Shown here in pieces: positions 22,920 through 25,639 of a stretch of 64,000 bases of DNA (position 1 is the first letter of the stretch; every line of letters starts with the position of its first letter). Both the position numbers and the translations under genes were made by a program. A model generated the notes under the pieces. That model was not told the DNA's origin, did no database searches, and saw nothing but the letters and a program-made list of their open reading frames with translations. The DNA comes from an uncultured Anaerolineales bacterium (GTDB lineage: Bacteria > Chloroflexota > Anaerolineae > UBA1429), in NCBI GenBank assembly GCA_964407215.1, contig CAYOUT010000003.1, positions 34,700 to 98,699 of the forward strand. The letters run 5' to 3'.

Positions 22920-22939
22920 AGAATGCCCTCGCATTGGAC

Positions 22940-22975
22940 AATATTATATGAGCACCTGCGTCTCATTGTCGGAGA
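22940..22975 (-). promoter_or_regulatory. candidate promoter for the nucleotidyltransferase-kinase operon; a perfect TATAAT -10 on the minus strand
   Basis: On the minus strand, TATAAT lies about 25 nt upstream of the start codon. The -35 region is weak (GACAAT). Confidence 0.3.
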
Positions 22976-23731
22976 GTAGACACCAGGGACAAGAGTATTC
23001 TACCACTCGAACCAGCGTGTAACCAGCACTGGCAACACAGCTGTCATATCGGCTATACGCTGAGGGCACCGTGCCCCGCTCTCTCGGCTGGCCGATACAG
23101 CACGGGTATCCTGGCCCGTGAGCACAAGATGCAAGGTGCGCCATGAGCACGTGCGATCGAATGGCTGCTGCCCTGTCGAAAGGCGGATTTCGTGAGATAC
23201 CCGTTGTCATCCCATACGAGAGTATATTCATTCGAGATTCTTGGAGCCAGCTTATAGATAGTCCGTAGCGGCACAGTACTCGATGGAGTTGAGCGAACAG
23301 CTATCGCAGCGAAAACAAGAGGAGCCCGTCGTATCGATCAGGGCAGGATTTAACTATCCAGTTTCTGCGCAAGTCAGAGCGCGAGAGACTCTGCCTTTAA
23401 ATCCAGATCGCGGGCGTTCCCCGAATCGGCAGGGCCACTGGTGGAGACACCAGAGCTGCAGCCTCCCCAGATAGGCGGCGAGCTCACCGTCGATCACGTC
23501 GACGCTGATGCCCGTCGATAGCGCAGAGGCGCTAAAGCAGCTCATTACGCTCCCCAAAGCAGAGCCTGCCTATGGGGATTTGAGGGGATGATGACCAGGA
23601 TCGCGCAACGGCCTGATCTCGCTACCCGGCTCATTGCCTGCATGGGGTGGAAGTGGCGGCTGCGTTGGGGCCCGGGGCATCTAGATCGAGGAGTGCATGA
23701 CAGATATGATCGAAGCGGAACCCTTTGCCAC

Positions 23732-24607
23732 TTACAACAGCCAGCCCACCAGCGCTCCCACCATGGCGCCGATGAGAGAACTGATGCAGTTCACCGCATC
23801 GTTAGTCATCCAACGCCACCCGTGTACATACATATTGGGTGCTCCGGTAGGATCAACAGGCCGCTCGGTCTCTTTCCCGCGACTGGGCGAGTAGTAAATC
23901 GCCTGTACAGTGGCACCCAATAAGCTATCGAACAACGAGCCCACCGAACCGCCCAGCACTGCGATGGGTATCAGCCCACTGGCCCCCACGAAGCGCTCTG
24001 TGCCCAACTGGCGGTGGATACTTCCCCCCAGGAGCCCATCCAATCTCAAGAACGCCAACATCGTGAGCCCCATGGCCAATGCCCCCGCCATAGAGGCTAA
24101 CGAGCCTAAAGCGGAGACGCCCCCCGACGTGCCCGGCTCGACGGGCTTCCACGTAGTTACAAGCCTCGGTGAGCGGGCGCTCAGTACACCCAGCTCAGTG
24201 GCCCAAGTATCTGCACTTACCGACGCCATAGCACCCACAAAAGCGGCCAGCCAGATGGGTGAAGGGTTCAGCATGTGCCCCAACGCTAACAGGGCCCCTA
24301 TCCCGCCATTGGCTAATGCTTGTCCCAGGTCGCGTTGAGAGCCCTTGGCGAATTGGTCCGCCACCGTTATCTTGGCGGATTCCTTGTAACGCGAGAGGAG
24401 GCTGGCGAGCGCGAAAAAAGTGATCAGGGTGAGGCCCCAGGCCCACCCCCCGCCCCCCCAGATGATGGTGCCTACTATAGCAGCGCCGAAGGCGCCGCTG
24501 CGTGTTAACGCCCGCCGCTTCAGTGCGGCCAAACCCACGAGACCGCTGAACACGAACCCAGAACCGAACCGCATCACCCATTCCATACGTAAGCCGCTCC
24601 TACACAA
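23732..24607 (-). CDS. DUF92/COG1836 membrane protein (VTE6 phytyl-phosphate kinase family)
   Basis: It is a multi-TM protein. It carries the GTIIWGGGGW segment characteristic of DUF92. Confidence 0.6.
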   Translation of the reverse strand: MCRSGLRMEWVMRFGSGFVFSGLVGLAALKRRALTRSGAFGAAIVGTIIWGGGGWAWGLTLITFFALASLLSRYKESAKITVADQFAKGSQRDLGQALANGGIGALLALGHMLNPSPIWLAAFVGAMASVSADTWATELGVLSARSPRLVTTWKPVEPGTSGGVSALGSLASMAGALAMGLTMLAFLRLDGLLGGSIHRQLGTERFVGASGLIPIAVLGGSVGSLFDSLLGATVQAIYYSPSRGKETERPVDPTGAPNMYVHGWRWMTNDAVNCISSLIGAMVGALVGWLL

Positions 24608-24656
24608 CTCGTCGCTGGACGTAAATACCCTGATGCGCTAGAGGCTGCTGCCCTTC

Positions 24657-25367
24657 TCATCGCGCGCCAACCAGTAGCCGGAGCACCGCGCCCGCCAAGA
24701 GAGGTACGGTGAGATTGTCGCTCCCTGCAGGGGACACGCCCTCTGCAATGGTGGCCACCGCGGTCGCGGCGAGGGTGTATATCAAGGCTTGCCCCAAACT
24801 CAGGGGCGTGCTGTTGGGGCTCAAGCCAGAGCTAGGTAACAACAAGAGGCTTATCAAGATGCCAATGAAAGCGAATAGCGCCATGGCGGCAGTCCCCTCC
24901 CATGAGCGCTGATGGCCCAGAACCCTGTAGTGATGTCTCCCCCAGCGCTCTCCCACGAGGCTGGCGGCGGCATCGCCCAGCGTCATGGCCATCATGGCGG
25001 CGACAGCGATGGGCGCGTGGTCCTGCTCATCGCCTGTGCGCCAGAGCAGCACAAACAGCAATGTGGCAGAGAAGGCAAAGTACACGGTGCCGTATGTAGA
25101 GCTGGTTGTGTCCATGGCCTTGAAAGCCTGCCATCGGCGAAAAGCGTAGTTCAACCCGATAAAGGTGGCAAAAGGAATCACGCCATAGTACCAATGCTCG
25201 AACAGAAACAAGATCCCCCAAACCCATAGCCCCGCACCCACATGGGTCACTTTACGCGTCAGGCTCTGAGGCCAGCGAAGGCGCTTACCCAAGGCCTCTG
25301 AAGCGAGCAACAGCGCGAAAGCGTAGGCGTAAGAGAGGGCCAGGCCGGTAACGTCACGGGGTGTCAT
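24657..25367 (-). CDS. CTP-dependent polyprenol/phytol/dolichol kinase-like membrane protein (CdsA-related family)
   Basis: MAMTLGDAAASLVGERWGRH matches the G-D-x-x-A-S-x-x-G-x-x-x-G-x-H motif of the phytol/dolichol kinase family. The start is at MTPRDV (M58 of the track ORF). Confidence 0.55.
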   Translation of the reverse strand: MTPRDVTGLALSYAYAFALLLASEALGKRLRWPQSLTRKVTHVGAGLWVWGILFLFEHWYYGVIPFATFIGLNYAFRRWQAFKAMDTTSSTYGTVYFAFSATLLFVLLWRTGDEQDHAPIAVAAMMAMTLGDAAASLVGERWGRHHYRVLGHQRSWEGTAAMALFAFIGILISLLLLPSSGLSPNSTPLSLGQALIYTLAATAVATIAEGVSPAGSDNLTVPLLAGAVLRLLVGAR

Positions 25368-25639
25368 GGATTCGACCTCATTGAGATTGCGTATTGGTTC
25401 GATCGGCTGGAATATGACACAACCTTGCGTTCTGCGCAAGGCGAACAATAGGCCTGTGAAGCTGTACCATCTGTATACCGATGTCGGGCGCGGTACGGCG
25501 GTCCGGCTAATCGCAAGAGGCTCGGCTGCACAAGGCATCCCATAGTTTTGGTGCAGTTCGTGTGGACACAGGTCGCCATAAGGCGAGCATAGTCAAGGCC
25601 CAGTCGTCTGCCCGTTTTGACGCCCCAGACCTTTCGTGC

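Follow-up and report, generated by a model that had tools for sequence, protein, structure and literature searches.

Adjacent VTE5-like and VTE6-like membrane protein genes of a non-phototrophic Anaerolineales bacterium as a probable operon for two-step prenol activation

The two genes described here, which we call B and A, lie next to each other in a stretch of 64,000 nucleotides (the window) from an uncultured Anaerolineales bacterium (assembly GCA_964407215.1, contig CAYOUT010000003.1, positions 34,700 to 98,699), and both encode membrane proteins. They probably constitute a two-gene operon for the two-step activation of a free isoprenoid alcohol, a salvage route in which a prenol would be converted to a prenyl monophosphate and then to a prenyl diphosphate. 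An earlier reading of the DNA alone (the sequence-only reading) had suggested two-step phosphorylation of a polyprenol or isoprenoid alcohol from the pairing of the genes, and the protein families, the adjacency of the genes and their fusions in relatives support that suggestion. Plants and cyanobacteria have an established counterpart of this route, in which the phytol kinase VTE5 is followed by the phytyl-phosphate kinase VTE6 (Molecules 2022 review, PMC9782597). The review reports that free phytol accumulates in mutants of VTE5 and VTE6, that these mutants lack products dependent on phytyl diphosphate, and that yeast and E. coli are without the kinase activities. Specific to the present case is a distinct pair of subfamilies, A-type and B-type, which is shared with Chloroflexus, takes operon and fusion forms in non-phototrophic Anaerolineae and is patchily distributed.

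The genes are arranged head-to-tail on the minus strand, with B upstream and a Shine-Dalgarno sequence before each:

25368..25379, minus strand: contains the GAGG ribosome-binding site of gene B (25379-25376), 8 nt 5' of the B ATG
24657..25367, minus strand: gene B, 236 amino acids (aa), membrane protein of the COG0170-type prenol kinase group (VTE5/FOLK/PolK-like), from the open reading frame (ORF) and its translation
24587..24656, minus strand: B-A spacer, 70 bp, contains the AGGAG of gene A, read directly from the sequence
23732..24586, minus strand: gene A, 284 aa, DUF92/COG1836 membrane protein (VTE6-like), by PF01940

Gene B starts at the ATG at 25367, a start found in 25 of 25 close homologues; a longer ORF reaching up to 25538 is unsupported, as these homologues begin at that ATG. 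The best start of gene A is the ATG at 24586, which has AGGAG (24601-24597) 10 nt upstream and is shared by homologues. Two minus-strand genes had been described at this position, as is the case, with a distance of 50 bp between them; with the ATG at 24586 the gap is 70 bp, and only a start at the upstream TTG (24607), to which the earlier figure corresponds, would reduce it to 49 bp. The motifs quoted at the time are present, GTIIWGGGGW in gene A and GDAAASLVGERWGRH in gene B. A terminator scan found no terminator-like site in the spacer (24587..24656), and promoter and terminator scans together gave nothing informative on a B-A operon. Both are real, conserved genes and not chance ORFs, because they match protein families, have many homologues and yield confident AlphaFold2 models.

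Gene B has 378 homologues in a word-indexed search and 2361 HMMER matches, the close ones (57-66% identity) coming from Anaerolineae-type metagenome-assembled genomes (MAGs). JGI labels them 'phytol kinase' or 'dolichol kinase', NCBI 'phosphatidate cytidylyltransferase'. Across 82 diverse relatives R38, D132, G158, E209 and D217 are invariant, and K39, H42, N73, G131, A135, G139, N218 and P222 are nearly so (K39 and H42 in at least 90%). The protein carries an R-K-x2-H clamp near the N-terminus, together with GD...A...G and C-terminal E...DN..P motifs, and in these motifs, as in being a small multi-helix membrane protein, it resembles VTE5 (Arabidopsis At5g04490, Synechocystis Slr1652), FOLK and Plasmodium PolK. 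The 'charged clamp' was described for the assayed Plasmodium prenol kinase PfPolK, where it consists of Arg29, Lys30 and His33, and the PolK model has eight transmembrane helices (PMC10849223); the AlphaFold2 model of gene B (predicted local distance difference test, pLDDT, 96.2) has eight long helices, matching that count. A protein atlas places gene B near clusters labelled 'diacylglycerol/polyprenol kinase' and 'phytol kinase', which are leads only. The homologues, the clamp and the Asp motifs thus agree with the original assignment of the second gene to the polyprenol/phytol/dolichol kinase family.

Since NCBI names several homologues 'phosphatidate cytidylyltransferase', and since among solved structures gene B matches TmCdsA (4q2e) best, with a Foldseek probability of 1.0 (E 8e-3) and a profile E of 0.02, it could be argued that gene B is a cytidine diphosphate (CDP)-diacylglycerol synthase, CdsA. 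We regard this as extremely improbable. The TM-score to 4q2e is just 0.38, so that the match fits a shared superfamily rather than CdsA membership, and VIA-align retrieved only CarS (5guf) with the gene B model, at a Z of 6.8 that lies in the range of helical noise. Gene B scores 19.6 bits against PF01148, below the cut-off of 24 and over part of the profile (57-215 of 264), and is a protein of 236 aa with the prenol-kinase clamp. A full CdsA is encoded elsewhere in the genome (C4:199857-200618) and scores 216.8 bits with PF01148, compared with 18-20 bits for gene B, and therefore gene B is not the housekeeping cytidylyltransferase. An NCBIfam search of gene B gave no match, nor did sequence searches of the PDB with the single proteins A and B. 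The annotation of the window is to be corrected accordingly: gene B is prenol-kinase-like and not a phosphatidate cytidylyltransferase.

Gene A matches PF01940 (DUF92) with an E of 3.8e-70 and 236.5 bits (gathering threshold 27.5) over positions 3-251 of the 251 of the profile, which confirms its earlier assignment to COG1836/DUF92. This full-length match and the polar residues found family-wide are shared with VTE6 (Arabidopsis At1g78620, Synechocystis Sll0875): K72, D126, E131, T153, S221, T226 and Q228 are invariant in 31 sequences, including three from Nostocales, and D220 is replaced by Glu in the three Nostocales sequences. By BLASTP gene A is 54% identical to the DUF92 protein of Chloroflexus and 38% identical to a second DUF92 paralog of its own genome. 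It also lies near a 'phytyl-phosphate kinase' cluster in the protein atlas, again a lead only. A comparative-genomics study of plants and prokaryotes predicted a function of COG1836 in phytol-phosphate metabolism (Gerdes 2011, PMC3223725).

DUF92 is a distant relative of the cytidine triphosphate (CTP)-transferase family and in some archaea is joined to an N-terminal Sec59-like domain (Makarova, Galperin and Koonin 2015, PMC5898192). In an hhalign comparison of the A and B alignments (E 2.3e-4, probability 44%), D126 of gene A pairs with D132 of gene B, and ADTWATE with GDAAAS, which agrees weakly with such a remote membership. With the AlphaFold2 model of gene A (pLDDT 89.0), Foldseek found no match below E 0.2, the top probability being 0.60 for CdsA (4q2g). 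Gene A might then be a cytidylyltransferase like its distant relatives CdsA and CarS, one that would use the prenyl phosphate from B to form a CDP-activated prenol for some lipid; the conserved metal-binding Asp (PMC5898192; hhalign) and the alignment of the C-terminal half of the model with CarS (5guf; Z 6.9, root-mean-square deviation 4.1 over 125 residues) and CdsA (4q2e; Z 5.6) would be in line with this. However, these structural scores lie within the noise range of helical bundles, no gene for a CDP-alcohol transferase is linked to the pair in 80 related loci, and in published studies of plants and cyanobacteria VTE6 has been assigned the activity of a phytyl-phosphate kinase (reviewed in PMC9782597). 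We therefore think a cytidylyltransferase role of gene A very improbable.

The genes co-occur and are repeatedly joined or fused, and this linkage is a feature of one clade. In a survey of 80 genome loci with a B homologue, searched by tblastn with gene A, 53 Chloroflexota MAG loci were informative, and in 41 of these, from Anaerolineae and Thermoflexia, a DUF92 gene lies downstream of B, six of the 41 being fused ORFs. The 80 loci are distributed as follows:

DUF92 directly downstream on the same strand (gap of 12-177 bp, or fused): 32 loci
DUF92 about 700-830 bp downstream: 9 loci
DUF92 at 4.3 kb on the opposite strand: 1 locus
Adequate flank without DUF92, Anaerolineae-type MAGs: 11 loci
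Flank too short to tell: 9 loci
Without DUF92 within 6 kb: 18 loci (Chloroflexales 7, cyanobacteria 5, KSB1/Calditrichota/Bacteroidota/unclassified 6)

In five of the nine loci with a gap of 700-830 bp the gap contains a 207-aa ORF without a Pfam match. An ORF of about this length lies between B and DUF92 in a group of Thermoflexus-like MAGs (L041:6725-7348, L042:6725-7354, L049:6439-7065, L070:6725-7351 and L038:3790-4434).

Fusions are frequent. A search for relatives longer than B gave ten proteins (486-527 aa), all with a B-like N-terminus and a DUF92 C-terminus, the same order as that of the genes here; about 20 of the best 150 representatives of 50% clusters are fusions of B followed by DUF92, and six named MAGs carry the two in a single ORF. 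On a quick maximum-likelihood tree of B relatives the 'fused' label requires at least five separate changes, counting starred branches alone. The neighbourhood check proposed with the sequence-only reading thus finds the pair kept together in B's own clade, with 41 of 53 loci and many independent fusions; elsewhere, in Chloroflexaceae-like genomes and cyanobacteria, the genes are unlinked. In a sample of 301 genomes of the phylum, A and B are adjacent in no other genome, and a DUF92 gene is present in 30 of the 31 genomes with a strong B match, as against 103 of 301 overall, a comparison in which related genomes are not independent. Clustering of the neighbours in the 80 related loci found no other gene recurring beside the pair, so that A and B are the conserved unit; the neighbours repeated across loci (DegV, a radical-SAM protein, a Cys/Met pyridoxal phosphate enzyme, ProRS and DUF218) look like ordinary synteny. 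The archaeal COG0170-COG1836 fusions (arCOG02245, with an N-terminal Sec59-like domain, e.g. Mbar_A3310) combine these two domains in the order of genes B and A and had led to the same proposal of an isoprenoid kinase step (PMC5898192). They differ in that the bacterial genes are separate here, and in their context, as the archaeal link to uppS is not seen here.

The tight coupling of the two genes bears on whether B is instead a kinase of long-chain polyprenols, of the undecaprenol or dolichol type, that restores the lipid monophosphate on which sugars are carried for envelope glycans, with A having some separate or auxiliary function on that lipid. Many close homologues of B are named 'dolichol kinase' by JGI, archaeal DUF92 genes are linked to uppS (Makarova et al., PMC5898192), and a sugar-nucleotide operon follows downstream on the same strand. 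Nevertheless, a single phosphate suffices for such a carrier, which leaves the tight coupling and the repeated fusion with a second CTP-transferase-like enzyme unexplained; the sugar operon is about 800 bp away and is not a repeated neighbour among the 80 related loci, and by identity B is closer to the cyanobacterial short prenol-kinase type than to the other paralogs tested. A lipid carrier had been put forward in the sequence-only reading as one possible role, for which only the first kinase would be needed, and we consider it improbable.

Both proteins are far from characterised enzymes, and the pair might act on a non-isoprenoid lipid alcohol, or serve biosynthesis rather than salvage. 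Genes for the fatty-acid-binding DegV run convergent to the pair in 15 related loci, in keeping with a non-isoprenoid substrate. However, the DegV link is limited to one group of related MAGs and to the opposite strand, and the characterised members of both families all act on prenols or prenyl phosphates (PMC9782597, PMC10849223); we give such a role only a slim chance.

In the two-step prenol activation that we favour, gene B would act first, as a CTP-dependent prenol kinase of the VTE5/FOLK/PolK type that converts a C15-C20 prenol to the monophosphate; farnesol, geranylgeraniol and phytol are candidate substrates, and CTP is the likely donor. Gene A, of the DUF92/VTE6 type, would then add the second phosphate, and the resulting prenyl diphosphate could re-enter the reactions of prenyltransferases or of chain-elongating synthases. 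The alcohol may derive from endogenous dephosphorylation or from uptake from the surroundings. The host genome encodes only two enzymes of the UbiA family, MenA, whose gene lies beside that of a polyprenyl diphosphate synthase, and a protein resembling decaprenyl-phosphate phosphoribosyltransferase. Candidate consumers would be MenA with the polyprenyl synthase, menaquinone being the most visible sink, and the second UbiA-family enzyme. What the sequences show directly are the families, the conserved residues of catalytic type, the operon layout, the recurring gene order, the fusions and the co-occurrence; the kinase activities, the nucleotide donor, the chain length of the substrate and the part played in salvage are what we infer.

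Several observations weigh against this interpretation. The match of gene B to PF01148 is partial and below the cut-off, and gene A scores 130.4 bits against TIGR00297, an NCBIfam hypothetical equivalog with a cut-off of 205.85. Both proteins are remote from the cyanobacterial forms: by BLASTP gene B is 31-36% identical over about 200-214 residues (E 1e-23 to 1e-25) to five proteins of a near-universal cyanobacterial paralog, which presumably corresponds to the characterised Slr1652 type, and gene A is only 26-29% identical to the sole DUF92 protein of three Nostocales genomes. Linkage is lacking in the 11 Anaerolineae-type loci listed above, and the two genes are unlinked in Nostocales and in complete Chloroflexaceae-like and Roseiflexaceae-like genomes, where they lie more than 0.7 Mb apart. 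Neither at this locus nor at the 80 related ones is the pair flanked by a gene for a prenyltransferase, a reductase or another isoprenoid enzyme, and the pathway is therefore one without a visible end. In addition, the host genome has no reaction centre, chlorophyll-synthase-type UbiA, phytoene synthase or PcrB. Finally, we found no bench studies of such bacterial genes in the literature and no measured activity in either subfamily. The function had been called unexplored in such bacteria, which holds for bench work, but a link of COG1836 to this pathway was predicted in 2011 (PMC3223725) and the archaeal fusion was described in 2015 (PMC5898192).

The distance from the cyanobacterial proteins also defines how the names VTE5-like and VTE6-like, used in the sequence-only reading, should be understood. 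They are apt at the level of families, but A and B are probably not orthologues of VTE6 and VTE5, because the identity of either protein to its cyanobacterial counterparts is only about 30%. A B-like gene is present in 118 of 121 cyanobacterial genomes sampled, the best match in all but two having about 27-46% identity over the aligned part, mostly 30-39%; the B-type proper (50-53% identity) is present in just 2 of the 121. Gene B is homologous to the near-universal paralog (E about 1e-24), but differs from it in belonging to a separate clade, shared by Chloroflexus, a few Nostocales (as an extra copy), KSB1, Calditrichota and Bacteroidota, and in its non-photosynthetic, bioreactor-living host. 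On the tree the B of the window falls in a starred clade of 68 sequences, mostly from Anaerolineae and Thermoflexia MAGs; the B-type sequences of Chloroflexaceae and Nostocales form neighbouring clades, and the near-universal type of the cyanobacteria belongs to a different one (supports 88-89, unstarred). Gene A differs from VTE6 in its low identity and sub-threshold TIGR00297 score, and also in the loop before the last helix (Y231..W259), which exceeds that of the cyanobacterial sequences by about 25-30 residues, whereas these have a longer loop of their own after the fourth helix. In at least 7 of the 121 cyanobacteria we observed an extra protein, a 461-523-aa open frame with a B-like N-terminal domain (for example L105:1333-2778 in G374, L106:720-2177 in G445, L107:596-2002 in G349 and L108:610-1947 in G386). 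The C-terminal half of one that was examined closely matches DUF92 below threshold (17.9 bits), and these proteins may be very divergent B-DUF92 fusions.

The nearest cultivated relatives are the Chloroflexus- and Roseiflexus-like homologues, with identities of 53% for B and 54% for A; by BLASTP gene B is 53-54% identical to Chloroflexus and to the second Nostoc copy. Both genes are present in 18 of 18 sampled genomes of that family, but there they occupy separate contigs or are more than 0.7 Mb from each other, and the hosts differ in being phototrophs with chlorophyll-type pigments to recycle. A phototrophic host was considered for the window and rejected, as searches of the genome (3.47 Mb, 95% complete) found neither reaction-centre L/M genes nor a UbiA enzyme of the chlorophyll-synthase type nor phytoene synthase; squalene synthase and PcrB were likewise not found in it. 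The locus is complete in one bioreactor metagenome run, which may be its source, and occurs in fragments at about 98-99% identity in two of four other runs, from two other studies. A run labelled RNA-Seq, but probably of DNA, held just a 245-bp piece of gene B, and no contig bridged the B-A junction in the four runs examined. Because of a gene content without phototrophy genes and the occurrence in bioreactors, the host is a dark-living non-phototroph.

Within its own family the B-A module is accessory and patchily distributed. Among 30 nearer relatives, B was found in only 1 of 18 sister genera, with an A-type DUF92 gene 84 bp away, and the remaining 17 have only the second type of DUF92 paralog. 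The pair is adjacent in two further genomes of the same class and unlinked in two more. B-type sequences from KSB1 (L058, L094 and L025), Calditrichota (L067 and L080) and Bacteroidota (L052 and L083) are nested inside the Anaerolineae clade of the tree, and a second, B-type copy is present in a few Nostocales (L085-L088 and L092; Nostoc and Tolypothrix). This nesting and the extra copies suggest lateral transfer, and the distribution of the module is apparently mobile.

More speculatively, the operon of these dark bioreactor Anaerolineae could be a scavenging device, by which free isoprenoid alcohols from other organisms (phytol from chlorophyll breakdown in reactors fed with plants or algae, farnesol, geranylgeraniol) would be taken up and converted to diphosphates for the host's own synthesis of quinones and prenyl lipids, the module spreading between phyla as a mobile two-gene or fused unit. 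We think this fuller scenario rather unlikely as a whole. The pair offers a clear, testable hypothesis. Prenol kinases and prenyl-phosphate kinases are missing outside phototrophs, and bacterial operons of this kind and their natural fusions are ready candidates for them, as well as possible parts for engineering isoprenoid production from fed alcohols.

The host genome contains further genes related to the pair or to isoprenoids. The second DUF92 paralog (C2:333943-334701; L002:1456-2307), 38% identical to gene A, is flanked by genes for a bPH_5/DUF1648 membrane protein and a protein with a B12-binding domain, and no B-like gene adjoins it. About 5 kb from it is a gene for a 522-aa protein (C2:339944-340312; L110:1027-2595, minus strand) with an N-terminal TauE/SafE sulfite-exporter domain and a C-terminal piece that resembles the catalytic half of B; a similar protein, P0133 (505 aa, PF01925), is found elsewhere. 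A third B-like paralog (C14:50403-51095; L109:995-1735) has 246 aa, 29-34% identity to B and no Pfam match. The single gene for a GGR-family reductase (TIGR02032, 210 bits; C1:340954-341820; L005:1492-2643) adjoins a flavorubredoxin gene. This isoprenoid-related gene is patchy as well, since searches of the 18 sister genera gave no homologue, and among relatives it does not co-occur with the A-B pair.

Upstream of the pair, on the other strand, lies a molybdenum-cofactor cluster. The approximately 800 bp 3' of gene A (22935-23731) hold a single ORF of 95 aa (22944-23231) without a Pfam match, and are followed on the same strand by the sugar-nucleotide operon, which encodes a nucleotidyltransferase and a sugar kinase/pyrophosphorylase. 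A promoter-like site at 22972-22943 is oriented toward this nucleotidyltransferase operon.

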